NCBI GenBank assembly: GCA_963851325.1
Contig: CAWKOR010000002.1
Span: 263,289-327,288, forward strand
Direction: 5' to 3'
Length of the DNA: 64,000 nucleotides
Origin: an uncultured delta proteobacterium
Lineage (GTDB): Bacteria > Desulfobacterota > Binatia > Binatales > Binataceae
Both the position numbers and the translations under genes were made by a program. Positions 4,616 to 37,284 of the stretch are shown here, one piece after another. How positions within the stretch are numbered: position 1 is the stretch's first letter; the number at the start of each line of letters is the position of its first letter. The notes beneath the pieces are model-generated. The model saw nothing but the letters and a program-made list of their open reading frames with translations, did not search any database and was not told the origin of the DNA.

Positions 4616-4620
4616 CGCGT

Positions 4621-15035: not shown

Positions 15036-15152
15036 TTTACGCGGTGCCAGTCGACCACTCGCAATTCTGTTGGGTGCGGTTCCGTTCCTCTTTTGTGTAA
15101 GGAAGATGAAACGATGCTCCGGCAGAGGGTCCCTTAATGCCGATGACTTCGG

Positions 15153-15548
15153 CTACGACAATGCGCGGTCGATGGCGCCGAGAACATCCTGCAGCTTCAT
15201 TTCCGCGGTGAAGATTCCGATCACCCCCAGGTCCAGCAGAACCTGCCGGTCTTCCTTCGGAATCGTGCCGCCAATAAAAATCTTGATCTGCTCGCCGTCA
15301 AGTTTCTTCAGCCACTCGATGGTTTCCGCGACCAGCTCCAAATGCGCACCCGACAGCAGGCTCAGCCCAATCGCATCAACGTCCTCGTCGATGGCGACGC
15401 GCGCGATATACTCCGGGGTTTTACGCAAGCCGGTGTAAATCACCTCGGCGCCGGCGTCGCGCAGCGCCAGCACGATAATCTTCGCGCCGGCATCGTGACC
15501 ATCCAGTCCCGGCTTCGCGACCAGGATTCTCTTGCGCTGAAGGCTCAT
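15153..15548 (-). CDS. Methylmalonyl-CoA mutase-type B12-binding small subunit
   Basis: The ORF 15153..15584 has an internal Met giving MSLQRKRILVAKPGLDGHDAGAKIIVLAL... (the DxHxxG cobalamin-binding motif within GLDGHD) and a Rossmann-like B12-binding domain. It sits immediately downstream of the large subunit. Confidence 0.8.
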   Translation of the reverse strand: MSLQRKRILVAKPGLDGHDAGAKIIVLALRDAGAEVIYTGLRKTPEYIARVAIDEDVDAIGLSLLSGAHLELVAETIEWLKKLDGEQIKIFIGGTIPKEDRQVLLDLGVIGIFTAEMKLQDVLGAIDRALS

Positions 15549-15550
15549 GC

Positions 15551-17170
15551 CTATAGACCGGTGGGCTCGCGGAATTCTCCCCAATGCTTCTTCAGCGTCG
15601 CCACCATCTCGCCGACCGTCGCATATGAATGACAGCAGTCCACGATATAGGGCATCAGGTTCTCGCGATCGGTCCTCGCCGCGTCATTCAACCGCGCGAG
15701 GTTGCGTTCGACCGCTCGATTATCGCGGCTGTCGCGGACCTCATTGAACTTCGCGACGATGTTCTGCGCGGTCTTCGGATCCATCCGAAACAGTTCGCGC
15801 ACGCCGCCGGTCTCGTCGCCGTTGTGACTTTCACGCTGATACTTATTGACGCCTACCACCACGCGCACACCCGCATCCAACAGCTCCTTGCGCTGGCGGG
15901 CCCGCTCGGCGATGCGGCGCTGGATGTACCCTTGCTCGATCGCCTTGATGACGCCGCCGTAATCGTCGACCTCGCGCATCACGCGAACGATCTCTTCCTC
16001 CATCTTGTCGGTGAGATATTCGACGTAGTGGCTTCCCCCGAGCGCATCGACGGTTTGCGCGATTCCGCTCTCATCCGCGATGACCTGCTGCGTGCGCAGC
16101 GCGATTTCCGCGCTCTCCTCGGTGGGAATCTGAAACGCCTCATCATACGCAGCGGTGAAGATCGATTGCGCACCGCCCATCACCGCCGCCATCGTTTCGA
16201 TCGCAACCCGCACGATATTGTTGTAGGGCTGCGCCGCGGTCAGCGAGGCCCCGCCGCATACCACACCGAAGCGGAACAGGCAGCTCCTGGGATCGGACGC
16301 GCCGTAGCGCTCCTTCATGAGGCGCGCCCAGATGCGTCTACCCGCGCGAAACTTGCACACCTCCTCGAAGAAGTCGGTGTGGACATAGAAGAAGAAACTC
16401 AGCCGGCCGGCGAAGCTGTTCAGGTCCGCGCCGCGCGCCAGCAACTCATCGACATAGGCGAGGCCGTTGGCCAGGGTGAACGCCATCTCCTCGACGGCGT
16501 TGCATCCCGCGTCGCGCACGTGCGCGCCCGCGATGCTGATGGGATTAAATCGCGGCGTCTGCGTGTTGGCATAAAGGATGGAGTCAGCAACCAGCCGCAT
16601 CGACGGTCGCACCGGAAAAATCCACGTCCCACGCGCGACGAATTCTTTCAGGATGTCGTTCTGGATGGTGCCGGTCAGCTTCGCACGGGGCACACCCGCC
16701 TTATCCGCGGTCGCGAGGTACATTGCATAGATGATCGCGGCGGTGCCGTTGATGGTGAAGGAAGTGGAAATCTTCGCGAGGTCGATTCCTTTGAAGAGAA
16801 TCTCCATCTCGCGCAAATTCGACAGCGACACCCCGACCTTCCCGACTTCGGGCCGCGCCATCGCATCGATCGGGTCGTAGCCGCATTGGGTCGGCAGATC
16901 GAGCGCAACCGAGAGTCCGGTCTGTCCCTGTTCGAGGAGGAATTTGTAGCGCTGGTTGGATTCCTCGGGAGTCCCGAAGCCTGAATACTGGCGCATCGTC
17001 CACAAACGCCCGAGGTAGCCGTCGGGAAAGATCCCCCGCGTATAGGGATACTCACCCGGCATCTCGGCGATACGATGATGCATCTCCTCGGTCGCGACCG
17101 CAGGAATTTCGATTCCGGAAGGAGTGGTCCGTTTTCGCTCGTCATTATTAGGCTTCGAAGACGCCTTCAT
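15551..17170 (-). CDS. Methylmalonyl-CoA mutase-type catalytic (large) subunit, split-gene form
   Basis: 539-aa TIM-barrel acyl-CoA mutase domain (TMRQYSGFGTPEESNQRYK..., TIQNDILKEFVARGTWIFP). It carries the Tyr and Arg at the positions that distinguish MCM from isobutyryl-CoA mutase (Phe/Gln). Confidence 0.9.
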   Translation of the reverse strand: MKASSKPNNDERKRTTPSGIEIPAVATEEMHHRIAEMPGEYPYTRGIFPDGYLGRLWTMRQYSGFGTPEESNQRYKFLLEQGQTGLSVALDLPTQCGYDPIDAMARPEVGKVGVSLSNLREMEILFKGIDLAKISTSFTINGTAAIIYAMYLATADKAGVPRAKLTGTIQNDILKEFVARGTWIFPVRPSMRLVADSILYANTQTPRFNPISIAGAHVRDAGCNAVEEMAFTLANGLAYVDELLARGADLNSFAGRLSFFFYVHTDFFEEVCKFRAGRRIWARLMKERYGASDPRSCLFRFGVVCGGASLTAAQPYNNIVRVAIETMAAVMGGAQSIFTAAYDEAFQIPTEESAEIALRTQQVIADESGIAQTVDALGGSHYVEYLTDKMEEEIVRVMREVDDYGGVIKAIEQGYIQRRIAERARQRKELLDAGVRVVVGVNKYQRESHNGDETGGVRELFRMDPKTAQNIVAKFNEVRDSRDNRAVERNLARLNDAARTDRENLMPYIVDCCHSYATVGEMVATLKKHWGEFREPTGL

Positions 17171-22930: not shown

Positions 22931-24121
22931 ATGAGTCTGAGCGAGGATACAGTTGCGCAGTCGTCTACCGCGCCGGTTGCACACTTGCGTCATTCCGGAT
23001 CACTCGGCGCCGGGCCCGACTGGATAAGCATCGAGAGGCTGGTTGAAGGTTCCGAGCGGGTCGGCGGAATGCTGATTCGGTCGGTGCAGTTCAAGCGGCT
23101 TTTCGCCAGCATCATCCGGTTTGCACCGCACAAGGCCACCGTGCTGATTCAGGGCGAATCGGGTACCGGCAAGGAGCTGGTCGCTCGTTCCCTACATAGT
23201 CTGGGCGCCGTTCCTAACGGACCTTTCGTGACCTTCAACTGCTCGAACCTGGTCGATTCGCTGGCGGAATCGCAGCTATTCGGCCATGTGAAGGGCGCCT
23301 TCACCGATGCGCGCGAGGACTCCCTCGGCTACTTCCGTTCCGCGAACGGCGGCACCTTGTTTCTGGACGAGATCGGCGAGTTGCCCCTGAAACTCCAGCC
23401 CAAGCTGCTCCGCGCCGTCGAAATGCACGAGGTTCAGCCGGTAGGCTCCTCACACAGTTATAAGGTCGATATTCGGTTGGTTGCGGCCACCAATCGCGAC
23501 TTGCGCTCGATGGTGAAGGCCGGTGAGTTTCGCGACGATCTGTATTATCGCCTCAACGCCGCGGCGTTGATCATTCCGCCGCTGCGCGATCGGCGCGACG
23601 CGATTCCCGCCTTCGTCGGCCATTTCGTCGAACAATATTGCCGGCTCTTCGCCAAGGACATCCGGCGCATTTCTCGCCAGGCGGTCGAGGCATTGTGCGC
23701 CTACTCATGGCCGGGCAATGTTCGCGAACTCGCCCATGCGGTCGAGAGCGCGGTGCTGATGGCCGACGGAGATGGCATTACGCTCAACGAACTTCCCAGC
23801 AATGTGCTCGAAGGTCGCGATGCCTCGGCTGTCCCGATTACAGAGGTTACCGCGACCGCGCTTCCGGCGGAAATTCCGGATGCGGCCGTAGTACCAGCGA
23901 TCAACCCGGAAGCGGCTGCGGAATCGAAGTTTTCGCTCGACGCAGCGATTCGCGAAGCCTCCAAGGACGCCCTGGTTCGCGCGCTCAATGCCACCCACGG
24001 CAATTGCCATCGCGCGGCCGATCTCTTGGGAGTCTCGCGCTATACGGTTTACCGGATGCTTGCGCGCTACGGATTGACCGAATCGCGCGGCTATCGAAGC
24101 TGGCGCAAGAGCCCCGCTTAA
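22931..24121 (+). CDS. Sigma-54-dependent transcriptional activator (AAA+ EBP plus C-terminal Fis-type HTH), lacking an N-terminal regulatory domain
   Basis: 396 aa with Walker A GESGTGKE, a GAFTDA loop, ESQLFGH, FRDDLYYRLN and a C-terminal HTH (HGNCHRAADLLGVSRYTVYRML). Only ~30 aa precede the AAA+ core. It is a paralogue of the partial gene at 1..639. Confidence 0.9.
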   Translation: MSLSEDTVAQSSTAPVAHLRHSGSLGAGPDWISIERLVEGSERVGGMLIRSVQFKRLFASIIRFAPHKATVLIQGESGTGKELVARSLHSLGAVPNGPFVTFNCSNLVDSLAESQLFGHVKGAFTDAREDSLGYFRSANGGTLFLDEIGELPLKLQPKLLRAVEMHEVQPVGSSHSYKVDIRLVAATNRDLRSMVKAGEFRDDLYYRLNAAALIIPPLRDRRDAIPAFVGHFVEQYCRLFAKDIRRISRQAVEALCAYSWPGNVRELAHAVESAVLMADGDGITLNELPSNVLEGRDASAVPITEVTATALPAEIPDAAVVPAINPEAAAESKFSLDAAIREASKDALVRALNATHGNCHRAADLLGVSRYTVYRMLARYGLTESRGYRSWRKSPA

Positions 24122-25002
24122 CCGGGTTCGGAGGGGGGGCGCGGTCGGCCAAATTTCCACGCCGGCAGCTCGCGCCCGATGAGCTTCTCCAGTTTCTCGA
24201 TCTCGGGGCGATACAACTCGCGCATCCGCTGGACGACCTCGTCGGAGAGCGGAGGAAACGGATCGCCTCCTTCGAGCATGTACTTGATGATCCTGCTCTC
24301 GCGCACCAGGTTCGCCGCGCGATAGTAACGGCGCGCGACGAACCACGCGACCACATCGCGCGCGATCTTCGCGAGCCTGCGGTTGGGCGGTTGCGTGTTG
24401 ACACTAAGAACGCGCTCGGCGCCCACCCGCGATGATGAAATCGGAAAGCGCGCGATCCCGATAAAGTCGCACACCAGATCGAGGAAAGCCTGCGGATTCG
24501 ATTCCAAATCGTCGTAGATGAGAACCAGCACCCGCTCGCGGCCGAACGCTCTGATCCACTCGCCCAGATGAGTTCCGTAGCGGCTCGATTCAAGCAAATC
24601 GCCGCGCGTTGTCGCGGCGCGCTCGAAGTCGACCTTGGTCGATGCCAGGCGCCGCAGCAACCGGTAGTTCGAGTATGCGCGCTCAACCGGATCGCGAAAC
24701 GAGCAAATTATCTTGCATGTGGGCAGATGTTCGGCGATTCGTTCGCGCGCTTGCGGTGAGGCGAAATACATCGGGCTCAGCTCGCCGACCGGGATCCCGT
24801 CGGTGCAATTCCTAAAATAGTCCGCGTACCAATCGATGCCCCGATCGTAAAAGCGCGTGAAAAAATCGGTCTCCTTGCGATCGGCGGGCAGACAGACGTG
24901 GCCCTTGAGCACCTCGTGAAGCCAGGTCGTCGCGGTGCGAGGCGGCCCGACCGCGATAAAGTCGGGCAGGCGCGACGCGCGGTTTAAGGCGCTCTCGCTC
25001 AC
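24118..25002 (-). CDS. Sulfotransferase-family protein (PAPS-dependent), copy 1
   Basis: 294 aa with a 5'-PSB-like motif (PDFIAVGPPRTATTWL) and a 3'-PB-like motif (SFRDPVERAYS). Its stop overlaps the convergent activator stop by 4 nt. Confidence 0.85.
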   Translation of the reverse strand: MSESALNRASRLPDFIAVGPPRTATTWLHEVLKGHVCLPADRKETDFFTRFYDRGIDWYADYFRNCTDGIPVGELSPMYFASPQARERIAEHLPTCKIICSFRDPVERAYSNYRLLRRLASTKVDFERAATTRGDLLESSRYGTHLGEWIRAFGRERVLVLIYDDLESNPQAFLDLVCDFIGIARFPISSSRVGAERVLSVNTQPPNRRLAKIARDVVAWFVARRYYRAANLVRESRIIKYMLEGGDPFPPLSDEVVQRMRELYRPEIEKLEKLIGRELPAWKFGRPRPPSEPG

Positions 25003-25925
25003 GCCGCCCGGCCCGATTTGCCGCTGAGCGCGCGCACCATCCTGGCGGGCAGAACCGTTCTGACCAGCCGCAGGTAGTTTCGCACCCGATATGGATCGAG
25101 GCTGATGGCCCGCGCAAATGCGTTGCGCGCCGTCGTCCGGTCGCCATGCGCCAGCGCATCCAGGCCGATGTAGCCGAGGATGCTGCGCGGGGCGCGCTCA
25201 CGCGCAAGCACGTGCCTCACCGGATCGACGCCGTAACGCTCCTTAACCATCCGGCGGAAAATCCGACCAGCGGCTTCCTGTCCACCCGAGGGTTTCAAGG
25301 CGGCGGGAAAATGTGCGAACCTCCACGCTGCCAGCTTCTCAGGTACGTAGGCGAAGGGCCCCTGCTCGCGCAGCAGCAGCCACAAGTAGACATCTTCAAA
25401 GGCCCGCAACGATTCCGGAAAGCCGCCTGCCCTGGCGAGCGCGTCACGACGGATGATCACGCCACTGGGCATTATCGGCCACAGCGAATCGAGCATGTCC
25501 TGCACAGTTGGCGGATGATGGTCGCGCACCGCCATCAGCGAGGTTTGAAACGGCTTGCCGAGGCTATCCACTAACTGCAAGTCGCAGTAGGCCACGACGC
25601 ACTCGCGATCGCCATCGAGAGCCGCCGTCATCGCGGAGAGGAAGTCCGGCTTCCACCAGTCATCGGCATCAAGGAATGCGAGATACTCGCCGGTCGAGTG
25701 CGCGACGCCAAGATTTCGCGCGGCCGAAGGTCCGCGATTTTTCTGCTGCAGGATTTTTGCCGCACCGGCATGGCGCTTCAGGATTCCGATACTGCCATCG
25801 GTCGAACCGTCGTCCACCGCAACGATTTCGAAATCGCGCAACGTCTGCGCGCACACGCTCGCAATTGCCTGCTCGATGGTGCGGGCGGCGTTGAACACCG
25901 GAATGATGACGGATACGCGTGGCAT
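24999..25925 (-). CDS. Family-2 glycosyltransferase, copy 1
   Basis: 308 aa GT-A fold (VSVIIPVFNAARTIEQAIASV..., DDGSTDGS, DADD) with a C-terminal TPR-like tail. Confidence 0.85.
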   Translation of the reverse strand: MPRVSVIIPVFNAARTIEQAIASVCAQTLRDFEIVAVDDGSTDGSIGILKRHAGAAKILQQKNRGPSAARNLGVAHSTGEYLAFLDADDWWKPDFLSAMTAALDGDRECVVAYCDLQLVDSLGKPFQTSLMAVRDHHPPTVQDMLDSLWPIMPSGVIIRRDALARAGGFPESLRAFEDVYLWLLLREQGPFAYVPEKLAAWRFAHFPAALKPSGGQEAAGRIFRRMVKERYGVDPVRHVLARERAPRSILGYIGLDALAHGDRTTARNAFARAISLDPYRVRNYLRLVRTVLPARMVRALSGKSGRAA

Positions 25926-25940
25926 CAGATGGTGGGCGGC

Positions 25941-26828
25941 CTAGGCGCTGGACTTCATCAATGGCGCACGCGACCTCGCGTGGCCGGGCCTGGTTTTCCA
26001 CGCGGAGAGGTCGCGATCGATCAAATGCTCGAGCGCCTCGATTTCGGGTCTAAAATGTTCGCGCAGGCGCGCGTCGATTTCCGGATCGAGCGCGCCAAAT
26101 TCCTCGCCGCCACCGAAGCAGAAGCGCCACACCCCCGCATGTTCGAGCAGCTCGACCGCGCGGTGCCATCGACGAATGCGCATCCAGTCGCGCGCGTTGC
26201 GCGCATTTTGCGCGAGCTTGCGGCTGCGCGGGGCATGGGTGACGGTGTTAACGCGCTCCGACGCGATCGCTGAACCCTCCACTTTGATTCGCTTTGCTCC
26301 AATAAAGTCGCAAATTCCGTCAAGGAACTTTTGCGACGATTGCTCGAGGTCATCGTAGAGGCAGACCAGCACGCGATCCGGGCCGAAACTCCGCTGCCAA
26401 TTGATCAAATGATGCGCGTAGCGGCTGGATTCGCGAATGATGCGATTCTTCGCGATGGTTTCCTCGAAGCTGACCCGCGTCCAGGCGTCCCGACGCATTA
26501 CCCTATACGAGGAATACGCGCGCTCGACCGGGTCGCGCAGAGTCACAATGATCTTCGCGCGAGGTATGTCCTTCTCGATTCGCTCGCGGGCGAGCGCTTC
26601 GCCGAAATAGTTGGGATCCACTTCGCCCAGCGGCAAGTCGGCCGGATAGCCGCGGAAGAACTCCAGATACCACGGCAGTCCCCTGGAATAGTTTTTGAGG
26701 AAAAAATCCGTCTCCTTGATCCCGCGCGGGAGCCCCAACTGAGGCCTCATCACTTCATGAAGCCACGTCGTTCCGGTGCGCTGCGGCCCGACCGCCACAA
26801 AATCGGGCAGCCGCGAGGTGTCATTCAT
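25941..26828 (-). CDS. Sulfotransferase-family protein, copy 2 (paralogue of 24118..25002)
   Basis: 295 aa with PDFVAVGPQRTGTTWL and TLRDPVERAYS; about half its residues are identical to copy 1 by eye. Confidence 0.85.
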   Translation of the reverse strand: MNDTSRLPDFVAVGPQRTGTTWLHEVMRPQLGLPRGIKETDFFLKNYSRGLPWYLEFFRGYPADLPLGEVDPNYFGEALARERIEKDIPRAKIIVTLRDPVERAYSSYRVMRRDAWTRVSFEETIAKNRIIRESSRYAHHLINWQRSFGPDRVLVCLYDDLEQSSQKFLDGICDFIGAKRIKVEGSAIASERVNTVTHAPRSRKLAQNARNARDWMRIRRWHRAVELLEHAGVWRFCFGGGEEFGALDPEIDARLREHFRPEIEALEHLIDRDLSAWKTRPGHARSRAPLMKSSA

Positions 26829-26875
26829 GGCAGGAAATTATCAGCCTCGACGCGCCGCTCCAATATGCTCGCCAT

Positions 26876-27892
26876 CTAGTCCGGCGGGAGGATGGCTTTG
26901 GCCTCGCGATGCGCCGCCTTCCCGCTAAGCCGCAGCGCGAGCCAAGCCGGCATGACCGTTCGCATCAGACGCAACCAGGTTTTGCGTTCGGTGGGATTCC
27001 AGCGCAACGCGCGCAGGAAACAGAGCCGCGCCTCGCGTGTCTCTCCGTGCGCGAGTGCTAGCAGGCCGACACGGCTCAGCAGACTGACCTTGTGACGTCG
27101 ATAGTACGCCGCGAGCGCATCGGCGCGATGCCCGTAGCGTTGTTGGAGCATCGGGATGAAGTTCTGCGTGCCACCTTCGATATCGCGCCGCACGACTCTG
27201 AGCAGTTCCGGGTAGGTATCGTACGCGAAGCGCACCAGCTTCTCGGGCACATATGCGAAGGGCCCCTGCTCGCGCGCGACCAGCCAGAAGAAAATATCTT
27301 CGCATCCGGCAATCGCCGGCGAGAAGCCGCCGATTCGATCGAAAGCCTCGCGTCGGATGACCACCGTGCTCGGCACGATCGGCCATAGTTGCGTTAGCAG
27401 TTCCTCCATCGAAGGCGCACGCGCAACCGGTGGCGGAATCATTTCGATGGCGAGGCCGGCGCCGTCGGAGCCCATCGCAATCATGTTCGAGTATGCCAGA
27501 ACGCATCGCGAATCGCGGTCGAGCGCCTCGAGGCATCGCGCGAGCTTGTCAGGCAGCCACGAATCGTCGGCATCGAGAAACGCGAGGTATTCGCCGCGCG
27601 CGTTCTTCACCGCGAGGTTGCGCGCGATCGCCTGCTGCTTGTGCGCCTGCCTGAGCAGCGTCACCGGTTCGCCGAAGCTCGCGAGGATTTCCAGCGTGCC
27701 ATCGGTTGACCCGTCATCGACGACGATGATTTCCCAATCGTGGATACTCTGTGCGAGCACGCTTTCAATGGCGCGCGCGATGGTTCGAGCTCCGTTGTAG
27801 ACCGGCGTTATTACCGAGACTCGAGGCACTCGGGTTACTCGACTCGTGCTGATCGGCGAACGCCGGCGCACTTCAGCCGTTGATCGATCCAA
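26876..27892 (-). CDS. Family-2 glycosyltransferase, copy 2 (paralogue of 24999..25925)
   Basis: 338 aa (VSVITPVYNGARTIARAIESV, DDGSTDGT, DADD) with the same C-terminal architecture as copy 1. Confidence 0.8.
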   Translation of the reverse strand: MDRSTAEVRRRSPISTSRVTRVPRVSVITPVYNGARTIARAIESVLAQSIHDWEIIVVDDGSTDGTLEILASFGEPVTLLRQAHKQQAIARNLAVKNARGEYLAFLDADDSWLPDKLARCLEALDRDSRCVLAYSNMIAMGSDGAGLAIEMIPPPVARAPSMEELLTQLWPIVPSTVVIRREAFDRIGGFSPAIAGCEDIFFWLVAREQGPFAYVPEKLVRFAYDTYPELLRVVRRDIEGGTQNFIPMLQQRYGHRADALAAYYRRHKVSLLSRVGLLALAHGETREARLCFLRALRWNPTERKTWLRLMRTVMPAWLALRLSGKAAHREAKAILPPD

Positions 27893-27970
27893 TCAATGCT
27901 TCGCGATATCGCGGACCCGCGGGTCCGCTTCGTCCGAGTTCGCGTGCCTGCACACAGGGTTCCTTCCGGA

Positions 27971-29263
27971 CTACGCTTTTGCGATCGCGTCGAGCATCGA
28001 TGCTTCCAGGATTCCTAGTCCCTCGTCCGCCAGTTCCAGCGACATCGTAAGCGGCATCAGCACCCGGATCACATTTGCGTAGATGCCGCAGCTTAGCACG
28101 ATGAGCCCGCGCTCGGTGGCTTTCGCAGCGATGCTTTTCGCGAGCTGCGGCGCGGGCTCCTTGCTCCCGCGATGGCTGACAAACTCGATTGCGAGCATCG
28201 GGCCGAGCCCTCGCACATCGCCGATGCAGGCGAATCGGGGATCTGCTTGAAATGCGTGGAGTCTCTGCGCCACGTGCTCACCGAGCTTCTGTGCGCGGCC
28301 AATGATTCCCTCTTCTTCCATCACGTCCAGAACTGCGAGACCGGCGGCGCAGGATACAGCGTTGCCGGCGAAGGTGCTGCCAAGCCCACCGGGTGCCGGT
28401 GCGTCCATCACGTCGGCGCAGCCGATCACCGCCGAGATCGGAAATCCGCCACCGATGGCCTTGGCGATAGCGATGAGGTCCGGAACTACGCCGGAATGCT
28501 CGATCGCGAACATTTTTCCGGTTCTCCCGAAGCCGGTCTGAATCTCGTCCGCGACGAGCAGTATGCCGTGCCGGTCGCACAAGCGGCGCAGTGCGCGCAT
28601 AAATTCAAATGGCGCGACATTGAAGCCGCCCTCGCCTTGCACCGGTTCGATGACGATCGCGGCTACGCGCGAGGCTTCGACCTCGGCGCGGAAAATCTGC
28701 TCGATACTTGCGAGGCTGGCCTCGCTCGACCCGCCGCGATAGGCATCGGGAAACGCGGCATGAAACACGTCGGCGGAGAACGGACCGAAGCCGACTTTGT
28801 ATGGATTGACTTTTCCGGTCAGCGCCAAGGCCATCATGGTGCGGCCATGGAAGCCGCCGCTGAAGGAAATAATTGCCGGCCGTCCGGTCGCGGCGCGCGC
28901 GATTTTCACCGCGTTCTCAATTGCCTCTGCGCCGGTCGAAAGGATGATGGTCTTCTTCGGCGAGGCGCCGGGCGCGAGTTGATTCAGTCGTTCCGCCAGC
29001 CGGACGTAAACCTCATACGGCGTGACCTGAAAACAGGTGTGGGTGAACGCCTCAAGTTGGTCGCGCACCGCCGCGAGTACGCGCGGGTGACGATGCCCGA
29101 TGTTCTGCACCGCGATGCCGCCGGCGAAATCGATGTAACGGCGGCCCTCGACGTCCCACAGTTCAGCGTTTTCGGCGCGCGCGGCGAACAGCGGAGTGGC
29201 GATTGAAATTCCGCGCGGCACTGCGGTCGACAATCTGGCGGCGAGTTGTTGATTGGAATCCAT
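27971..29263 (-). CDS. Class-III PLP-dependent aminotransferase (GabT / 4-aminobutyrate aminotransferase-like)
   Basis: 430 aa with a PLP-lysine region (GKMFAIEHSGVVPDLIAIAKAIGGGFP) and the characteristic N-terminal motifs. Confidence 0.85.
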   Translation of the reverse strand: MDSNQQLAARLSTAVPRGISIATPLFAARAENAELWDVEGRRYIDFAGGIAVQNIGHRHPRVLAAVRDQLEAFTHTCFQVTPYEVYVRLAERLNQLAPGASPKKTIILSTGAEAIENAVKIARAATGRPAIISFSGGFHGRTMMALALTGKVNPYKVGFGPFSADVFHAAFPDAYRGGSSEASLASIEQIFRAEVEASRVAAIVIEPVQGEGGFNVAPFEFMRALRRLCDRHGILLVADEIQTGFGRTGKMFAIEHSGVVPDLIAIAKAIGGGFPISAVIGCADVMDAPAPGGLGSTFAGNAVSCAAGLAVLDVMEEEGIIGRAQKLGEHVAQRLHAFQADPRFACIGDVRGLGPMLAIEFVSHRGSKEPAPQLAKSIAAKATERGLIVLSCGIYANVIRVLMPLTMSLELADEGLGILEASMLDAIAKA

Positions 29264-29269: not shown

Positions 29270-31477
29270 TTAGTCGCCGATCGAAGCACGAAAATCAACC
29301 ACCACGGGCTGCACACCTTCACTGGAATCATTCGATCTCGCGATTGAGCCACGCACTTCGAACTTCACCGCATCGATCGCGTCGCCGGAAGCATCCACCA
29401 ACGCCAGGCGATGAGATCCGGCCACGGGCGTCCACAACTGTGCAGCAGTCGCGATGCCAAGATTCGAACCATCGAGCTGCCAGCGCATCGCGGGGGTGCA
29501 TTGCGAACCTTCGAAAGACACTTTCTGCCGCGCCAGCGGAATGTCGGGATCGAACGCAACGATACTTCCGTCGGCGGGCGAAGTGATGCGCGCCCGCGAG
29601 GAATCGAGGCGCATCGCGACAACGTTGGGTTCGGTTCCGGGGATGAACAGCTCGTCGCGCGCCGGTTCGATCGCGTTGGGAAATTCCACTCGCCTGGCGA
29701 CCAGCCCGCGAGGCCGGGGAAAATCCGCCGGCTCCCCGAAGCGCCGATGCAGGTAGCTGACAACCTCGAGCCACACCGGCGCCGCGCCGGTCATGCCGGT
29801 GATGTCGCGCATCGGCGCGCCCGATGAATTTCCCACCCATACTCCAACGGTGAAGGGTCGCGTATATCCAACGCACCAGTTGTCGCGCATGTCTTTGCTG
29901 GTTCCGGTTTTAACCGCGCTCCAGAACGGCGTGGCGAGGCTGTTCTCGAGGCCGAACGTCGCGCTGCGGCTGGCGCGATCGGAAAGGATATCGGAAATCA
30001 GAAAGGCGGTTTCGTCGCTGTAGATGCGGCGGCGCGCAACATCATTCGGATCCGGTTGCACGCGCAGCGGCGACCATTCGCCGCGATTGGCCAGCGTGCG
30101 ATACGCGTTGACGATTTCCCACAACGTCACATCCGCGGAACCCAGCGCAATCGCGCCGCCGTAGTAATCGCCGGCCTCGGACACACCGTTGAATCCGAGC
30201 GCGCGCAGATGCTCGACAAACTGATCGACGCCCACCATGTCGGCGGTGCGCACTGCCGGTACATTCAGCGACGACGCCAGCGCAGTTCGCATGGAGACCA
30301 GACCACGGAAACGGCGATCGTAGTCGAGTGGGCGATAAAGCCCGCGCTGCTCGGGCAACTCCAGCGGCGAATCGTCGAGCATCGAGGCTGGAGTGAGCAG
30401 GCGTCGCTGCAACGCGAGCGCATACAGAAAAGGCTTCAATGCGGAGCCGGGCTGGCGCAAAGCATGGACCGCGTCGACATATGGCGCGTCGGAAAGCTCG
30501 CCGGCCCCGCCCACGTACGCCCTTACCTCCCCGCTCGAGTTGTCGGCAACGAGCACCGCGCCGTCGTCGACATTGCGATCGTGAACCTGGGCCACCTGAT
30601 GACGAAGCGCATCGGTCGCGAAGCGCTGCAGGTCGCGGTCCAGGGTGCATTGCGTTTGCGCGCCGCCCTCGGGCATCAGATGCTGCGCGAGATGAGGCGC
30701 GAGCGCCAACCTCGCAAAACGGCTGGGGCGGTGGGCAAATGCAGCGTCCATCGCGACCACCACGTCGCCGCGACTCGGCGCATCCGGGCTATCCTGCCGA
30801 AGCCGCATTGCGCGACGCTCGACCGCCGCGCGATTGGCGTTCGGCGCGCGTAGCAATGACGCGAGCACGATCGCCTCGCCGCGATTGATTCCGTGGGGTG
30901 CCTTACCGAACAGCACGCGCGATGCGGCGCCGACTCCCTGCAACTCGCCGCGCCAGGTGACCATGTTCAAATAGCTTTCGAGGATTTGGTCCTTGGACCA
31001 ACTGCGTTCGAGCGCGAGCGCCGCCCGCATTTGTTCGAGTTTCTGGATGATCCCGCGATGACGGGCGCGCCGCTGCAGCGCCGGATCGAGCATCGCCACC
31101 AACTGCATCGTGATGGTACTCGCACCGCGCGGAGGTTTGCCTATGATGGTTTTGGCGAGCGCGCCCGCAACTGCGATCGCATCGACGCCATGGTGTGTCG
31201 CGAAGCGATGATCCTCCGACGCGACAACTTCCTGCCCAAGCGCCGGTGAGATGGCATTCAACGGAGTCCATGCGAGGCGGCGTCCATGGCGATCGATACG
31301 GATTTCATGCAGCGGCTCGCCGTATCGATCGACCAGTTGCACATCCGACGGATGCCAGCGCGCGCGCACCTCCGGGAACGTGGGCAGCATCGGCGCCGAC
31401 AGCAGCCATCCCGCGCAAATAGCGGTGATCGCGACCGCTCCGAGAGCGGGCAGCATGGGCATGCGATGAATCTTCAT
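29270..31477 (-). CDS. pbpC: Penicillin-binding protein 1C (PbpC): GT51 transglycosylase, transpeptidase and PbpC C-terminal domain
   Basis: 735 aa with the GT51 motif EDHRF, transpeptidase SALKPF (SxxK) and KTGTS, and a C-terminal PBP1C-specific domain. The start overlaps the upstream A2M stop (ATGA). Confidence 0.9.
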   Translation of the reverse strand: MKIHRMPMLPALGAVAITAICAGWLLSAPMLPTFPEVRARWHPSDVQLVDRYGEPLHEIRIDRHGRRLAWTPLNAISPALGQEVVASEDHRFATHHGVDAIAVAGALAKTIIGKPPRGASTITMQLVAMLDPALQRRARHRGIIQKLEQMRAALALERSWSKDQILESYLNMVTWRGELQGVGAASRVLFGKAPHGINRGEAIVLASLLRAPNANRAAVERRAMRLRQDSPDAPSRGDVVVAMDAAFAHRPSRFARLALAPHLAQHLMPEGGAQTQCTLDRDLQRFATDALRHQVAQVHDRNVDDGAVLVADNSSGEVRAYVGGAGELSDAPYVDAVHALRQPGSALKPFLYALALQRRLLTPASMLDDSPLELPEQRGLYRPLDYDRRFRGLVSMRTALASSLNVPAVRTADMVGVDQFVEHLRALGFNGVSEAGDYYGGAIALGSADVTLWEIVNAYRTLANRGEWSPLRVQPDPNDVARRRIYSDETAFLISDILSDRASRSATFGLENSLATPFWSAVKTGTSKDMRDNWCVGYTRPFTVGVWVGNSSGAPMRDITGMTGAAPVWLEVVSYLHRRFGEPADFPRPRGLVARRVEFPNAIEPARDELFIPGTEPNVVAMRLDSSRARITSPADGSIVAFDPDIPLARQKVSFEGSQCTPAMRWQLDGSNLGIATAAQLWTPVAGSHRLALVDASGDAIDAVKFEVRGSIARSNDSSEGVQPVVVDFRASIGD

Positions 31478-34400
31478 GGTGCGACGTCGAAGCGAGCGTT
31501 GGGGATCTCGCCAAACATTTCGGGCTCGTAGAGCGCCTCGACGCGCGTCGACGGCATCTGAAATTGCCCGGCCTGGTTGAGGCGAATGGTGTATTCGGCC
31601 TCGAAGCCACCCTTCGGAATGTAGTGATAATAGGCGCGATAGGCATCGAACGGGCGCTCAACGAAATCGGGCCAGAACAAATCGTTGGCGAACACCGCGG
31701 TGAGTCCGCCACGACTCGGCATCAGCAAGGCGTCCGAAGTCTGCTCGCCGGACACCGCGATCCGCGAATCGCGCTGAAGACCGCCGCCGAGATGCGATGC
31801 GCCTGCCGGAATCGGATCGTTGACGACAACCCAAGTCATATCGCTTTGAGCGTCGATCTTGAGGTGAATGCGAACGAGATCGCCGCTGTGCCATGCCCCG
31901 GTGCGCGAAGCCTCGACCGGCGTGATGGTCTTCGTAATGGTGTAGCCGCTCAAAACCGGTTGCGTAAGCGGTACCGCGGCATTGGCCTGAATAGTCGCCC
32001 ACGGATTGCCGGTTCCGGAATGCACGAGATGCAACTCGCTCGGCATCGCCGGCCACGGGAGATCCAATTTTCCGCCGGCCGGTTCTTTCGCCCAGGCGAG
32101 GACCTGCTTCGCCTCATTCAGAGTCGCCGCGGTATCACCGGTCACCGGCTGCGATTCGAAGGCCGCGGCGAATTTTTCGGTCGCGAGCGTTCCCCATGCA
32201 TTGGCGACGGTGGTGCCCCAGTTGCCGCGGACCTGCATCGCGATCATGCCGGAGGTCACCCGCGAAACGTCGTCGGTCCAAAGTTTGTGATCGATCAGAA
32301 GTAGCGTCAGGCGCGCCATATTCTCGGATGGCGAAACCATCAGCCACCAGAAATTGTTGCGCGGATCGGATGACAGATGCATCGCGGTTCCCTGCGAGTT
32401 CAGCCTTGCGCGAATGATCTGCTCCGCCGCTTCGATCAGCTTCTCGCGATCGGGGAGCGCCGGCGTGCGCAGCAGGATGCTCCACCAATCGAGCACGGCA
32501 GAATCGGGCCATAGATTCGGATCGATGGTGAGACTGCCGAGCAGCGCGGGCTTGATCGTTCCGATGCGCGCGAGTGCTTCGATGGCCGCCAGCTTACGCA
32601 TCGGGAGATCGACGGTCTGGATCGATTCGTTGCGAATGATCTTGCCTTCAACGAAGCCGTGCAGCCCGCCGCGCATCTGCTCCTGGAGCGGCGCGGGAAT
32701 TTTCAGCCCGGCTTCGTTGGTAACCGCAAGCACGTAGGAAGTAAGGACATCGCTGCCCTGCTGCATCATCGGGAAATATTTCAGCAGACCATCGGAATCG
32801 ACGTATGAAGGAAGCTCGGCAACCACGCCGCTCCACAGCTTCGCATCGTGCAGCGCCACTGCGCGCGAGACTCGCTGCTCGAGACATATATAAGGGTAGT
32901 CGCGCATCCATTGACGCACGGCCTCCAAACCGGCAACCAGCGATGGACGCAGCCCGACCACGATGCCGCCGGCGCCGGGTAGCGCGCCCTGCGGCGCGGC
33001 AACTGGAACCTCGATCGGTTTGTCGACCCGCATCAGAGTCGCCTGATAGGTCCGAATCGGCACCGCGGGCAATACACGCTGGGTCACCTGCAAATGATCG
33101 GAGGCCCCCTTGGCGAGCGCATCGAGGCGGTAGGTCAAATCGCCCGACGATGACGCGGGAACCCTGACGTTCCAGTTCATGATTTTCCCGTCGCCAGGAG
33201 CAAGATTCACCTTCTGCGCGAAAGGCTGATTGAGGCCGACGATTTTCCCGTTGACGCCTGCTTCGAGAGAACGCTCGGAGGCGTTACGCACCGTGAACGC
33301 GGCCATGAAGGCGTCGCCGTTTCGAATGATTGGCGAAATGCCCGGCAGGATCATGAGGTCCTGGGTTGATTTGATAGTCGCCGCGCCGGTCCCGAAAAGT
33401 CCGGCCTCGCTGCTGGCAATCGCGACGATGCGGAAGCTGGTCAGCGAATCGTTCAGCGGCACTTCAATCGAGGCATCGCCGTTTGCATCGATGGGAACGC
33501 TCGCCTTCCACAGCAGCAGCGTGTCGAAGAGTTTGCGGGTGACCTGGCGCCCACCTCCACCGCCGGGCGGAATTGCCTTCAATCCGTAATGACGCTTGCC
33601 CACCACCTCCATCTGCGCGGTCGCGGTCTCGATTTGGTACGAGCGGCGTCCCATCATCGCGTCAAGGAGCTTCCAACTGTCGTTGTGCATCAGCTCGAGG
33701 AGGCCTTCGTCGACCGCAGCGAGCGCGACCTCGCTTCCCGCAGGCGGCGCCTTCCCGTTGGCGGTCCGCACGGAAACTTTGACTCGCGCTTTTTCTCTGA
33801 CGCGATAGACCGCGCGGTCGGGCGTGACGCCGACCTTGAGTTCGTGATCGCGCCATCCGACGCGGATCTCCGCGATGCCGAGTTTGAAGGCCGGCTTGCC
33901 GAGGTCCACCATCGCGGTCGGCTGGATCGACCCGATCCGGCCGCGAACCGCCAGCACCGAGACGTATACGTTGGGCGCGTAGTCGCGCACCGGCAGCGTG
34001 ATGCTTGGATCCTTACCCGAGAGGGACAGCACCGACGCGGCGATCACCCCTTCGCGCTCGACGGTGACCAGGGCGGTCGCCGCGCCGAACGGCATCCGAA
34101 CCTGGAAGCGCGCGGTGTCGCCTGGCTGATACTGCCGCTTCTCGGGCAGCACATCCATGCGATCGTCGTCGTGGCCGCGAAAGACGAATCGGTCGGGGCC
34201 AGGAATGTAAATTTCGAGAAATGACGACGACGAATGGCCCGCGTCATCGGTCACGGTTGCCTGCGCGACGACCTCGCCGGTCGCGGCAGTCTGCGCCTCG
34301 CACACCATCAGGCCGTGGCGATCGGTCTTGCCGGAGCACAAGTCGCCGATGCGTCTGGTGTCGGTGATATTCTCGTAGGCGTAAAATCCACCAATCAGGC

Positions 34401-37284
34401 GTTTGCGATAGCCATAGCGTTTGCGGGCGAAGAGCGCGACGCTGACCGGCGCATTCGCGACCGCCTTGCCGGCATCGTCGACCACCGCGATGTGAACCTT
34501 CGGCTTGTCGGAGGCCGCAATCCAATCGGGAATCGAAACTCCGACCAAGCGCTTCGACGGCCAAATCGTGGTCCTATTGGAAACGGTTTGGGTCTCGCCG
34601 TTGGGGTCGCGATATTCCATCTCGGCGGTCAACTCGATCGGCGTCGTCGCGGTCTTGATGCCGGTGATCTCGGTGCGCGCACCACCCGCCGCATCGAGCA
34701 CCAGGTCGATCCGTTGATGAACACCCTGGTGCTGCTGCGCGGGCGTCGCCTCCTCGATGTCCTCGCCCTCGCGCACGATGCCCTCGGTCACCGTTCCATT
34801 GGCGAAGGTGAAATTCTCGAAATCGGGGAACTGCGGAAACGCGTTGGGGTTGAGCTGGCTGCGAATTGTAACCGGAAGCCCTTTGGCTGCGCCGCCGGAA
34901 AGGTATTCTGCGCTGACATCGATGGGAACCCTGGTGGCCGCGACCTGCGCCGCGGTGGGCATCCGGATCTGCGCGCGCATCAGCGGAACGCGAAACTCCT
35001 CGACGCGAAAACCACCGCTGCTCAACTCCACCGAAGTTCCGCCGTCGCCGGAATCATCGGGGCCTGGGGACGCGGTTGCCTTCCGGCTATGCAGCATCGC
35101 GATTTGGTACTGGCCGAGCCGGGCGGTTTTAGGAATTTCCCAATCCAATTCGGCGGTGCCATTCGGGTTCCAGGTCAGATCGAAATCGAAGTGCTGGTCG
35201 CTGCCGGAATGCCGAATTGAAAGCGAGTTCGGCAGATCCTCGATGTGCGGTATAGAAAACCCATCAAGGGTTTTCGCACGAATGAAATGCTTCATGTGAA
35301 CCGTTTCGCCGGCCCGAAATAGCGGACGATCCAGCACCGTATGCGCGGCCAGGTTCGGCGATGAATCATCGCTCGGAAGATGAAAGCGCCACGCCTCGAT
35401 GCCTTGCCGCCAACTGGAATGGACGAAGCTGAAATCTGTGCCCTTGCGCGCGGTCACGATCACTCCCGAATCGAGATCGTTGATGGGGGTCAGTTGTTCG
35501 GAAAATGAATCGGGATCGGGATGTTCGTCCGGCGTCCGATCGCATCGGGGCAACGCACTAAGCGCCGAGACGCCAGTCACGATCGCGAGGCCGCGCGCAT
35601 CGGTGCTCCCGTACCAGAGCTCCTTGCCGCTGCAATCGGCGATCGCGACGGTCGCGTCGGGGACCGGCTTGGCGCTCTCGAGCTCGGTGACCCAAATCAG
35701 GGAGTTCTGGTTGCCCTTCTTGAAGTGCACCGCGAGGTCGGTGACCAGGGCGATGGTCGGCACGTACATCGGCGCGTCGGTGTCGAGCAAATCCTGGCCC
35801 AACTTTTTGCTTTCGAGCTCGACGACATAAAATCCGGTCCTCTTCAGCGGGATGCCCATCACCTCGAAAGCCTTGGCGCCGTTGGGCTTCGGAATGGTGA
35901 ACTCGCGTGCGCCCGCTTTTAAATCGCCCGCGAAAACCGAGTCGGCGCGATGCGCGCCTGCGACTTTGCGCATCCAGGATAGTGAGGATGCGGCATCCGG
36001 GTCAGGCATCCTCCACAATGTCGCCTCGATCCGGGTGAGGGCGTCGGCATTCGCGGATGCGCTCTCATCCAGGCGCATCTGATGGCCGCGGATCTGCGCC
36101 TCGAGGTTGCGCACGGTGACGGGAAGTACAGGATCGACCGCCTCGATGATGCCGAAGCGCGAAGAAAATTTCGCGAGCGGTGGAAACTCGCCGGTTGCGA
36201 CAGTCATCGGAAAGCGCGCGGCATTGGACAAGGCGTGCCCCGCGTCGTCCACGACCTTGGGTGGCAGCTCGATTTTGTATTGCGTCGATTCCTTGAACGG
36301 TCCCCGAAAAGTCACCTCGGAGATCGAGGCCTTGCCCTGATCGTAAATTGCGATGGTCGGGGTAATCCGCGAGCCGTCGGACGCGACCAGCGCGACCTGT
36401 TTCGCCAGTGCCGTCGCGATTGGCTCGCTAAACCACAACGACATTGGGGTGACGGGGATGCAGGCGGCGTGCGCATTCTCGCGCTCGCATCGAAGCGCGG
36501 CCTCGAATGGCTTGCGACTTTTGAAGTTGAGGATCTGGTCCTTGATGGTCGCCACGCCGGAGGTCGCCCTGATGCCTTTGCCCCAAATCAAGCTGATCGC
36601 GGCGCCGTTCGGAAAACTCTGTTTGGCCTGGAGAACGAGCGCCGGCCGATTCGAGATGAAATTCTTGAAGTGCTTCAGCAGGATATCGCGATCGGCAGCG
36701 CCCATGATCTTGACGCCGACTCGCTCGGGAATGCCTTCGATAGAAAATCCCGCGTTTGCGACGACTGATGCGAGGTCGGGCTCAGCGTCCAGGACCAGCA
36801 CGAACGCCTGCTGTTCATCGAGATCCTCGCTTCCACCCCATGGCATCGATTCGACGACTGAGGGCCCACCGGTATCGAAGTGGAACTCAGGTCGCGAAGT
36901 GAATGAGGTCCCCGCCAGAGTGCGCAGTTTGGCACGCAGGCGGAAACTACAGCGCACGCCGGCCGGCAGATCGTGCGCGAAGTCGTAGGCCCATCGATTC
37001 GTGTCGATCCATCGCGCGGAACCTTTCGCAGAGCAATCGACCTCGAAGGGCATCGCGCCCTCGAATGCCCTTCCGAGCGGAACCATCGGCTCGGAAAATT
37101 GCGCCGTCACCTGGCGAACATCCTTGACGGTTCCCTGCGGCGAGAACCGAAGCACTCGCGGCGACGATTGCGCACGCGCGACGGCAGAACTCAGAATTAG
37201 GATCGCAGACAGCAGCGGAAGGCAGCGCGCGAGGGGCCAACAACTCGGCCGAGAGTCGATGTGCGTCGAACCGTTCGCTTCCAA
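31474..37284 (-). CDS. Bacterial alpha-2-macroglobulin (YfhM/ECAM family), thioester-containing
   Basis: 1,936 aa with a signal peptide, multiple MG domains and the thioester motif CLEQ (YPYICLEQ). It is in the conserved A2M-pbpC gene pair arrangement. Confidence 0.9.
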   Translation of the reverse strand: MEANGSTHIDSRPSCWPLARCLPLLSAILILSSAVARAQSSPRVLRFSPQGTVKDVRQVTAQFSEPMVPLGRAFEGAMPFEVDCSAKGSARWIDTNRWAYDFAHDLPAGVRCSFRLRAKLRTLAGTSFTSRPEFHFDTGGPSVVESMPWGGSEDLDEQQAFVLVLDAEPDLASVVANAGFSIEGIPERVGVKIMGAADRDILLKHFKNFISNRPALVLQAKQSFPNGAAISLIWGKGIRATSGVATIKDQILNFKSRKPFEAALRCERENAHAACIPVTPMSLWFSEPIATALAKQVALVASDGSRITPTIAIYDQGKASISEVTFRGPFKESTQYKIELPPKVVDDAGHALSNAARFPMTVATGEFPPLAKFSSRFGIIEAVDPVLPVTVRNLEAQIRGHQMRLDESASANADALTRIEATLWRMPDPDAASSLSWMRKVAGAHRADSVFAGDLKAGAREFTIPKPNGAKAFEVMGIPLKRTGFYVVELESKKLGQDLLDTDAPMYVPTIALVTDLAVHFKKGNQNSLIWVTELESAKPVPDATVAIADCSGKELWYGSTDARGLAIVTGVSALSALPRCDRTPDEHPDPDSFSEQLTPINDLDSGVIVTARKGTDFSFVHSSWRQGIEAWRFHLPSDDSSPNLAAHTVLDRPLFRAGETVHMKHFIRAKTLDGFSIPHIEDLPNSLSIRHSGSDQHFDFDLTWNPNGTAELDWEIPKTARLGQYQIAMLHSRKATASPGPDDSGDGGTSVELSSGGFRVEEFRVPLMRAQIRMPTAAQVAATRVPIDVSAEYLSGGAAKGLPVTIRSQLNPNAFPQFPDFENFTFANGTVTEGIVREGEDIEEATPAQQHQGVHQRIDLVLDAAGGARTEITGIKTATTPIELTAEMEYRDPNGETQTVSNRTTIWPSKRLVGVSIPDWIAASDKPKVHIAVVDDAGKAVANAPVSVALFARKRYGYRKRLIGGFYAYENITDTRRIGDLCSGKTDRHGLMVCEAQTAATGEVVAQATVTDDAGHSSSSFLEIYIPGPDRFVFRGHDDDRMDVLPEKRQYQPGDTARFQVRMPFGAATALVTVEREGVIAASVLSLSGKDPSITLPVRDYAPNVYVSVLAVRGRIGSIQPTAMVDLGKPAFKLGIAEIRVGWRDHELKVGVTPDRAVYRVREKARVKVSVRTANGKAPPAGSEVALAAVDEGLLELMHNDSWKLLDAMMGRRSYQIETATAQMEVVGKRHYGLKAIPPGGGGGRQVTRKLFDTLLLWKASVPIDANGDASIEVPLNDSLTSFRIVAIASSEAGLFGTGAATIKSTQDLMILPGISPIIRNGDAFMAAFTVRNASERSLEAGVNGKIVGLNQPFAQKVNLAPGDGKIMNWNVRVPASSSGDLTYRLDALAKGASDHLQVTQRVLPAVPIRTYQATLMRVDKPIEVPVAAPQGALPGAGGIVVGLRPSLVAGLEAVRQWMRDYPYICLEQRVSRAVALHDAKLWSGVVAELPSYVDSDGLLKYFPMMQQGSDVLTSYVLAVTNEAGLKIPAPLQEQMRGGLHGFVEGKIIRNESIQTVDLPMRKLAAIEALARIGTIKPALLGSLTIDPNLWPDSAVLDWWSILLRTPALPDREKLIEAAEQIIRARLNSQGTAMHLSSDPRNNFWWLMVSPSENMARLTLLLIDHKLWTDDVSRVTSGMIAMQVRGNWGTTVANAWGTLATEKFAAAFESQPVTGDTAATLNEAKQVLAWAKEPAGGKLDLPWPAMPSELHLVHSGTGNPWATIQANAAVPLTQPVLSGYTITKTITPVEASRTGAWHSGDLVRIHLKIDAQSDMTWVVVNDPIPAGASHLGGGLQRDSRIAVSGEQTSDALLMPSRGGLTAVFANDLFWPDFVERPFDAYRAYYHYIPKGGFEAEYTIRLNQAGQFQMPSTRVEALYEPEMFGEIPNARFDVAP

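Follow-up and report, generated by a model that had tools for sequence, protein, structure and literature searches.

A stretch of 64,000 nucleotides from an uncultured member of the Binataceae (assembly GCA_963851325.1, contig CAWKOR010000002.1, positions 263,289 to 327,288 of the forward strand; below, the window) carries four co-directional open reading frames (ORFs) on its minus strand at positions 24118-27892. They alternate between family-2 glycosyltransferases (GT2) and sulfotransferases (ST), in the order GT2b, STb, GT2a, STa. What would such enzymes make, does the alternation record the duplication of a two-gene module, and do the genes belong with the cell-wall-repair genes that lie upstream of them? 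The four-gene array is confirmed. We think that its enzymes probably build and sulfate an exported glycoconjugate. The genes are best read as old paralogues in one configuration of a variable array, and not as a recently duplicated module. To our knowledge, sulfated glycans are thought to be rare in bacteria. According to a study of synechan, sulfated polysaccharides are in essence confined to cyanobacteria (PMC8205485). In the Binataceae, a soil family that is uncultured but widespread, 2-6 heparan-sulfate-like STs are arrayed beside glycosyltransferases, with a content that varies by species. The hypervariable array was previously undescribed, and its enzymes are ordinary members of known families. 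Our literature search found no paper linking Binatota or Binatia with sulfotransferases, and sulfotransferases do not come up in the main genomic survey of the phylum (PMC8262859).

The four genes and their predicted products are:

26876-27829, minus strand: GT2b, a soluble family-2 (GT-A) glycosyltransferase of 317 aa (PF00535, 124 bits)

25941-26828, minus strand: STb, a 3'-phosphoadenosine-5'-phosphosulfate (PAPS)-type sulfotransferase of the heparan-sulfate NST/3-OST-like class, 295 aa (PF13469, PF00685)

24999-25925, minus strand: GT2a, a soluble family-2 (GT-A) glycosyltransferase with a helical C-terminal region, 308 aa (PF00535, 120 bits)

24118-25002, minus strand: STa, a PAPS-type sulfotransferase of 294 aa (Pfam matches above cut-offs; 49% identical to STb)

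The junctions are short: 47 nt between GT2b and STb, 15 nt between STb and GT2a, and a GTGA overlap between GT2a and STa, in which the GTG start of STa lies on the GT2a stop. A preliminary description, made by a model from the letters alone, had given this gene order, and we found the four ORFs as it stated. It had also extended the array to 27892, the TTG that opens the longest ORF. The array is real; however, GT2b most likely starts at the GTG at 27829, and the TTG is the less likely choice. From that GTG the protein would begin MPRVSVITPVYN, which matches the GT2a start MPRVSVIIPVFN, and an independent gene call on an identical contig gives the same start. The G+C content of the window is about 61%, with no compositional break around the four genes. 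No transmembrane segments were found in any of the four proteins. All four enzymes look active as predicted from their intact motifs.

Judging from their sequences and a predicted structure, STa and STb are most likely PAPS-dependent carbohydrate-type sulfotransferases. The scores against Sulfotransfer_3 (PF13469) and Sulfotransfer_1 (PF00685) are 66.3 and 58.2 bits for STa, and for STb they are 62.7 and 53.2 bits (cut-offs 27 and 22). The two are 49% identical over 278 aa (E 6e-98), which bears out the earlier estimate that about half of the residues agree between the copies. STb has the motifs GPQRTGTTW, KETDFF and RDPVERAYS. We compared these across 125 STs that were collected, together with 94 GT2s, from 72 related loci. 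The 5'-phosphosulfate-binding (PSB) loop reads GP(Q/P)RTGTTW in both STs of the window, and its Arg is present in 123 of the 125. The K-E of the KETxFF motif is kept in 120-123, and the Arg and Ser of the 3'-phosphate-binding (PB) motif RDPVERAYS are kept in all of them. At the level of a HMMER sequence alignment, K38-E39 of KETDFF lies opposite the E-(E/V)-x-x-F-F segment of NDST1. The published definition of polysaccharide sulfotransferases asks for Lys or Arg in the PSB loop, Ser in the PB motif and either Glu or His as the base; NodH and Stf0 likewise have Arg at the PSB position (PMC11625862). With the PSB Arg and the PB Ser, and with the Glu of KETDFF as the putative base, the STs of the array fit this definition.

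The PDB sequences closest to STb are 3rnl (an uncharacterised Alicyclobacillus sulfotransferase) and the human heparan-sulfate enzymes NDST1 and 3-OST-3, at about 1e-14. The AlphaFold2 (AF2) model of STb has a mean predicted local distance difference test score (pLDDT) of 89.4. With this model, the top Foldseek matches were 3rnl, 3-OST-3 and NDST1 at a query-normalised TM-score (TMq) of 0.63-0.66, and TPST, CurM and the SULTs, which are tyrosylprotein, polyketide and cytosolic sulfotransferases, reached only about 0.4. Among solved structures, the best matches are the NST domain of NDST1 and 3-OST-1/3/5 (PDB 1NST, 1T8U, 6XKG; about 1e-14, TMq about 0.63). These enzymes have GPQ(K/R)TGTT, K/E-E-x-x-F-F and the PB Arg...Ser in common with the Binataceae STs. 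However, the Binataceae proteins differ from the animal enzymes in having Arg in place of the PSB Lys and in being soluble bacterial proteins, and they share with 3rnl a conserved C-terminal segment (...PE(V/I)EALE..DLSAWK) that is distinct from NDST1 and 3-OST. The bacterial PAPS-dependent sugar STs NodH, LpsS, KpsS and Stf0, which act on glycolipids and LPS in rhizobia and mycobacteria, also have Arg in the PSB loop, but their systems do not have tandem ST/GT2 arrays. We rejected a reading of the STs as tyrosine sulfotransferases because the matches to TPST were far weaker than the matches to glycan enzymes. NCBIfam had no named family for STa or STb, and an exact-sequence look-up of STb gave no matching record. 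The ST subfamily comprises 224 clusters (50% identity) at E<=1e-30, within a bacterial superfamily of 8,012 clusters at E<=1e-10.

The two glycosyltransferases are most likely soluble inverting GT-A enzymes, again from sequence and a structural model. Both pass the Glycos_transf_2 (PF00535) cut-off of 23 bits, and they are 44% identical over 306 aa (E 5e-85); chance does not explain the similarity in this pair or between the STs. The preliminary description saw GT-A motifs in both copies, and these are general: the DxD for metal and nucleotide sugar (LDADD in GT2a) is present in 94/94 GT2s and the ED, the acceptor-base motif, in 90/94. It also saw TPR-like tails. About 90 residues at the C terminus do form a conserved helical region, but the TPR assignment did not stand, as TPR_2 matched GT2b only and below threshold (17 bits, cut-off 27). 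The AF2 model of GT2a (pLDDT 89.6) shows a GT-A domain followed by this tail (helices 216-300), which is strongly conserved within the Binataceae. Foldseek places GT2a nearest to CgT/GalT1, K4 chondroitin polymerase, WrtF, SpsA and TarS/TarP, with E-values down to 8e-19, and the best PDB sequence match is K4 chondroitin polymerase (3e-26). The A2 domain of the E. coli K4 enzyme, CgT/GalT1 of S. parasanguinis, WrtF, TarS/TarP and SpsA share the GT-A fold, the DxD and the ED with GT2a. However, identity to these elongating GT2s is only 18-27%, and the helical region has no specific counterpart in them. NCBIfam gave only sub-threshold generic matches for GT2a and GT2b (TuaG, EpsE, WcaA and others). 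A peptide S-glycosyltransferase reading was rejected, since the SunS matches were far weaker than those to glycan enzymes.

The array stands within a longer train of genes. Its neighbours in the window are:

31474-37284, minus strand: bacterial alpha-2-macroglobulin (A2M), domains bMG3, MG2, A2M_BRD, A2M, bMG10

29270-31477, minus strand: PBP1C (TIGR02073 PBP_1c, 591 bits, cut-off 494)

27971-29263, minus strand: class-III aminotransferase, gabT-like, 430 aa (Pfam Aminotran_3, 431 bits; NCBIfam TIGR00700, 575 bits)

27830-27970, minus strand: spacer of 141 nt between the aminotransferase and GT2b

22931-24121, plus strand: sigma-54-dependent activator, convergent with STa (Pfam Sigma54_activat, AAA_lid_14, HTH_8)

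37635-39731, plus strand: squalene-hopene cyclase, divergent from A2M (Pfam SQHop_cyclase_N, SQHop_cyclase_C)

A2M, PBP1C, the aminotransferase and the four array genes form a minus-strand run of seven genes, in that order. A2M and PBP1C overlap by ATGA, 6 nt separate PBP1C from the aminotransferase, and the stop of STa overlaps the stop of the convergent activator by 4 nt. The co-direction and the short or overlapping junctions had been claimed before, and the junction sequences agree with this.

To place the array among its relatives, we classified the ORFs of the 72 distinct loci, which came from species-representative genomes, and of several further metagenome contigs against the window proteins. 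The best protein matches come from soil and peat metagenome-assembled genomes (MAGs) of Candidatus Binataceae (Binatota = Desulfobacterota_B). The arrangement of the window is common to four species-level relatives (loci L008, L009, L011 and L012; 76-83% identity). In these four an aldo-keto reductase gene lies between the aminotransferase and GT2b. Three equally close loci (L001, L005 and L010; STb 80-85% identity) have neither A2M-PBP1C nor GT2b. Their order is a divergent cyclase, the aminotransferase, a reductase or DUF899 gene, STb, GT2a, STa and the convergent activator. Other Binataceae have on the left an ArsR-type regulator, DUF1329 genes, and a divergent pair of half-size chromate-transporter-family genes with a 293-aa hypothetical; then come the aminotransferase, STs and GT2s, and then the activator. 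STb orthologues occur throughout the family at 62-85% identity, the STa orthogroup adjoins the activator in 16 loci, and no other GT2 orthogroup of the array is conserved as widely as GT2a. GT2b orthologues (76-81% identity) occur only in the four species-level relatives, in a GT2 clade that differs from that of GT2a. Arrays with both borders (17 loci) hold 1-6 STs and 0-4 GT2s inside. By these comparisons the conserved core of the array is STb-GT2a-STa.

The aminotransferase is directly upstream of ST/GT2 genes in 28 loci (65-89% identity) and is present in 11 of the 19 fully framed loci, and at least three arrays that are complete in other respects (L017, L037 and L069) genuinely lack it. 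The activator has the same right-hand position in 34 loci. It is without an N-terminal sensor domain, an architecture like that of PspF, and it covers TIGR02974 (PspF) over its full length with a score below the cut-off. Taken across the loci, the array is by its gene content a Binataceae-wide one that gains and loses genes, usually led by the gabT-like aminotransferase and closed by the PspF-like activator.

The 141-nt spacer of the window, the one sizeable gap in the run of seven genes, has a history of its own. In blastn comparisons with L012, L009, L008 and L010, it aligns with both ends of the 987-nt reductase gene (~31 nt at the start and ~41 nt at the end), a gene that is intact in L012, L011, L009, L008, L001 and L010. 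Because the spacer matches both ends, about 0.9 kb of the gene must have been deleted internally in this lineage. The deletion junction lies within a perfect palindrome of 18 nt, GCGGACCCGCGGGTCCGC (27911-27928). We rejected this hairpin as an RNA structure, since the fold energy of the spacer is ordinary against shuffled sequence (z = 0.07) and the site is the deletion junction.

Two further observations concern the array in its relatives. The left-flank genes of most arrays (L002:340-4585 and about 26-29 other loci), with one or two DUF1329 genes among them, are missing from the window, and the conserved 293-aa hypothetical among them has no Pfam or NCBIfam match. There is also a second type of Binataceae ST/GT2 locus (L043-L052, for example L043:12781-14970), downstream of secA, argJ and a Rieske gene. 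There an MsbA-like ABC exporter gene (TIGR02203, 578 bits, cut-off 602) is flanked by GT2s and STs. Several genomes carry both types.

We estimate a probability of about 0.6 that the array serves cytoplasmic assembly and PAPS-dependent sulfation of an exported glycoconjugate, a reading that draws on the sequences and the models. GT2a and GT2b, together with STa and STb, would extend and sulfate a carrier-bound oligosaccharide at the cytoplasmic face of the membrane. The carrier would probably be a lipid-linked one, bound for secretion or the cell surface, and it would be made and exported by genes outside the array locus. The preliminary description had also proposed a sulfated glycoconjugate, and we judge this the most reasonable product from the enzyme families, folds and motifs and from the glycan context of the relatives. 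In Acidobacteriota, STs of about 50% identity adjoin a Wzx-type flippase, GT2s, a FemAB/GNAT-like protein and methyltransferases. The second Binataceae locus type, with its MsbA-like exporter between GT2s and STs, belongs to this context too. At 25-30% identity, ST homologues are found in the synechan (xss) cluster and in a Phaeobacter exopolysaccharide (EPS) plasmid locus rich in Wzc and GT2 genes. A Sinorhizobium pSymB homologue (about 27% identity) has an unannotated record and could not be tied to a named enzyme. Seven arrays also hold a gene similar to UDP-sulfoquinovose synthase (L057, at 11959-13278 on the minus strand, L069, L070, L072, L073, L075 and L078), next to a minus-strand GT2. 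It matches NF041015 over its full length at 485 bits (cut-off 575), and the window has none. This suggests that some arrays may use a sulfonated sugar besides sulfate esters.

Several points weigh against the exported glycoconjugate. We found no priming glycosyltransferase, flippase, polymerase, co-polymerase or exporter in the window or in the Binataceae arrays between aminotransferase and activator, so the pathway is incomplete at the locus and any acceptor is guesswork. None of the annotated ORFs in the 64-kb window encodes an enzyme of PAPS synthesis (ATP sulfurylase or APS kinase). The nearest experimentally studied relatives of the enzymes are less than 30% identical. The aminotransferase is by score a GABA (gamma-aminobutyric acid) transaminase: TIGR00700 is a GabT equivalog with a cut-off of 506.65, which both the window protein and the L002 orthologue (592 bits) exceed. 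Such an enzyme has no place in any known glycan pathway, and its presence could hint that the substrate is a small molecule. Finally, the gene calls in the loci are heuristic, several of the MAGs carry frameshifts, all trees are neighbor-joining (NJ) trees, and what we say of function is based on homology throughout.

The main rival, which we consider unlikely, is that the product might be a small-molecule glycoside that carries sulfate, for example a compatible solute or a natural product. The aminotransferase, ancestrally together with the aldo-keto reductase, might supply or modify an amine, aldehyde or hydroxy-acid aglycone, with NST-like N-sulfation. The aminotransferase comes first in 28 arrays with gaps of 15-50 nt, every enzyme is soluble, the locus is without lipid-carrier or export genes, the STs lie equally close to the 3-OSTs and to the NDST1 N-sulfotransferase domain, and genes for trehalose-phosphate synthase and phosphatase lie 9 kb away. 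However, the three otherwise complete arrays without an aminotransferase do not fit, and neither does the deletion of the reductase in the window. Outside the family, the relatives of the STs are found in polysaccharide loci of the Wzx type, and copy numbers of STs and GT2s that swing this widely are more usual in surface-glycan loci.

There is a bolder form of the surface-glycan idea, which we find doubtful. In the Binataceae, which are abundant in soil, the locus would be an expandable combinatorial array, with up to six heparan-sulfate-type STs and up to four GT2s, that makes variably and heavily sulfated glycosaminoglycan-like surface glycans or glycolipids with species-specific patterns. 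Within this proposal the gabT-like aminotransferase might create an amine for N-sulfation. The array may sometimes work with the enzyme similar to UDP-sulfoquinovose synthase and with a chromate-transporter-family (possibly sulfate) transporter. If it were true, there would be glycosaminoglycan-like sulfated glycans outside cyanobacteria and animals. Even the plainer reading would have consequences. If the product is a sulfated surface glycan, it would bear on soil aggregation and metal binding and on recognition by phages and predators, and the arrays would be a source of new regiospecific carbohydrate STs for making sulfated oligosaccharides.

A known parallel in layout is the xss cluster of Synechocystis sp. 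PCC 6803 (on pSYSM), in which the STs XssA and XssE lie among eight glycosyltransferases with a dedicated transcriptional activator; the Binataceae array is likewise interleaved. The gene count of xss, with two sulfotransferases and eight glycosyltransferases, fits its product, in which there are two sulfates for every eight sugars (PMC8205485). STb is 27% identical to the xssA-region sulfotransferase over 73% of its length, which is low. The xss cluster carries Wzx, Wzy and a polysaccharide co-polymerase (PCP), whereas the Binataceae array has none of these and has instead the gabT-like aminotransferase, the sigma-54 activator and a more variable number of STs. The array is not a Wzx/Wzy-type cluster like xss; a Wzx-type flippase is adjacent only in the Acidobacteriota relatives. 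Both systems are flanked by a chromate-transporter-family gene and an ArsR regulator (in xss at pSYSM 12152-15560 of locus L082, with chrA by xssA). Chromate is an analogue of sulfate, and it is speculation that this flank reflects sulfate supply.

How did the alternating order arise? The preliminary description took it as an old duplication of a two-gene module. The duplications are indeed old, but the copying of a two-gene module in tandem is not supported. In the NJ trees, STa, STb, GT2a and GT2b fall into four separate orthogroups, each with members throughout the Binataceae. Quartet bootstraps place STa with the activator-proximal ST of L022, L025 and L033, and STb with their STb-type gene, in 40/40 replicates; GT2a and GT2b each group with their counterparts in distant genomes in 60/60. 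The clades as drawn are less firm in their exact membership (STa clade 65%, STb clade 17%). Orthologues are 53-85% identical, as compared with 44-49% for the paralogues. The GT2a-STa and STb-GT2a adjacencies recur widely, and the GT2b-STb adjacency is found only in the window and its four species-level relatives. With separate old orthogroups and GT2b-STb confined to one subclade, the alternation comes down to the STb-GT2a-STa core plus one extra GT2.

A GT2+ST module duplicated en bloc in tandem, followed by two specificities, is therefore improbable. It would explain the order GT2-ST-GT2-ST and the similar divergence in both pairs (44% and 49%). However, a recent event is contradicted by the trees, in which STa, STb, GT2a and GT2b all go with their counterparts in distant genomes. 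The three close loci without GT2b, the confinement of GT2b-STb to one subclade, and the different ST neighbours of the GT2b-type genes in L022 and L002 also count against it. There may have been an extremely ancient en-bloc duplication with later reshuffling.

We next considered whether the four genes belong with the cell-wall-repair genes. The preliminary description had named separate promoters and terminators that cut the ST/GT2 genes off from the upstream genes as evidence against its reading, and we found no terminators or sigma-70 promoters isolating them. Terminator-like sites were fewer than in shuffled sequence, and the only promoter-like sites were in the divergent region between the cyclase and A2M and upstream of the activator. 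That the array is transcribed together with the genes before it is thus not refuted for this genome, and from the sequence it is plausible.

The idea that the ST/GT2 genes work within an A2M-PBP1C envelope-defence operon, for example by decorating the envelope along with peptidoglycan repair, is nonetheless very unlikely in our judgment. Seven co-directional genes with short or overlapping junctions and no detected terminator would suit it. GT2b and A2M-PBP1C also share the same presence and absence among the eight closest loci (five with both and three with neither), though they are not adjacent. However, A2M-PBP1C lies here in only 5 of about 45 arrays that have the aminotransferase and/or activator flank, namely the window and its four species-level relatives, and is absent from all more distant arrays. 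In L001, L005 and L010, which are 80-85% identical in the ST, the same core follows beyond the divergent squalene-hopene cyclase, which there lies directly upstream of the aminotransferase. The shared distribution of GT2b and A2M-PBP1C could stem from one or two evolutionary events, and between the two lie the aminotransferase and, in the ancestral order, the reductase gene. It could reflect a single ancestral rearrangement or a real link, and the events are too few to tell.

By this comparison of loci, A2M-PBP1C was inserted in this lineage between the cyclase and the aminotransferase, and a functional pairing with envelope repair, which the preliminary description had called unexplained, is not supported. 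The pair itself is typical of bacterial A2M and PBP1C, down to the overlapping ATGA junction, and it is a neighbour rather than a component of the array. The position beside cell-wall-repair genes is best read as a lineage-specific accident and not as a conserved functional unit. Both the GT2-ST-GT2-ST pattern and the A2M/PBP1C train would then be local accidents of a dynamic locus, with no designed unit behind them.

Tailoring of hopanoid side chains, with the aminotransferase acting like HpnO, a GT2 like HpnI (analogies that we presume from general knowledge) and the STs sulfating bacteriohopanepolyols, is hardly credible: the cyclase is the divergent neighbour of the aminotransferase in L001, L005 and L010 and lies just past A2M-PBP1C in the window, but elsewhere the chromate-transporter-family pair and the hypothetical take its place, the aminotransferase scores above the GabT equivalog cut-off, and no other hpn genes are nearby. 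As a general explanation we rejected it because the cyclase adjacency is limited to this subclade.

We also looked for targets of the activator, searching for sigma-54 sites as TGGCAC-N5-TTGC with <=2 mismatches. Such sites were fewer in the window than in shuffled sequence, with none upstream of the array, and across the 72 loci there was no recurrent site upstream of the aminotransferase, ST or GT2 genes. A small membrane protein gene that is divergent from the activator in some relatives had no sigma-54 promoter. A perfect sigma-54 consensus, TGGCACATCGGTTGC, is found at L001:3644 and L010:1281 (plus strand), 24-31 nt upstream of a gene for 320-340 aa. This gene has a weak GNA1162-like match and lies between a metallo-beta-lactamase-fold gene and the cyclase; it is missing from the window (39732-40245). 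From its position it could be a target of the nearby activator.

In the intergenic region between the 293-aa hypothetical and the aminotransferase of L002, L016, L017, L020, L022, L032-L036 and others, the conserved motifs TCGAAGTATCAGTC...GGTCAATT correspond to TTGACC-N17-TACTTC on the minus strand. This is likely a promoter of the hypothetical/transporter operon. The same regions have a TTGAYY-N~17-CAYTTA box only about 8 nt before the aminotransferase ATG, which suggests that this transcript may be leaderless.

Some features of the window lie away from the array. The trehalose-6-phosphate synthase (GT20) and trehalose-phosphatase genes occupy 12749-15035 on the plus strand, about 9 kb from the STs, and we saw no link. 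Sulfotrehalose is a sulfated sugar in other organisms. A Tad/Flp-pilus assembly cluster (RcpC/CpaB, secretin, ParA-like ATPase, T2SSE ATPase, T2SSF) lies at 2719-10089 on the minus strand, with a near-consensus sigma-54-type site, TGGCACGCGACGTGC, at 10476-10490 (minus strand), about 390 nt upstream of its first gene. An intergenic array of imperfect direct repeats lies at 51167-51721, between a fatty-acid-hydroxylase-family gene and an unannotated ORF; the units are about 57-99 nt long, at spacings of about 283 and 90 nt, and are 61-95% identical.

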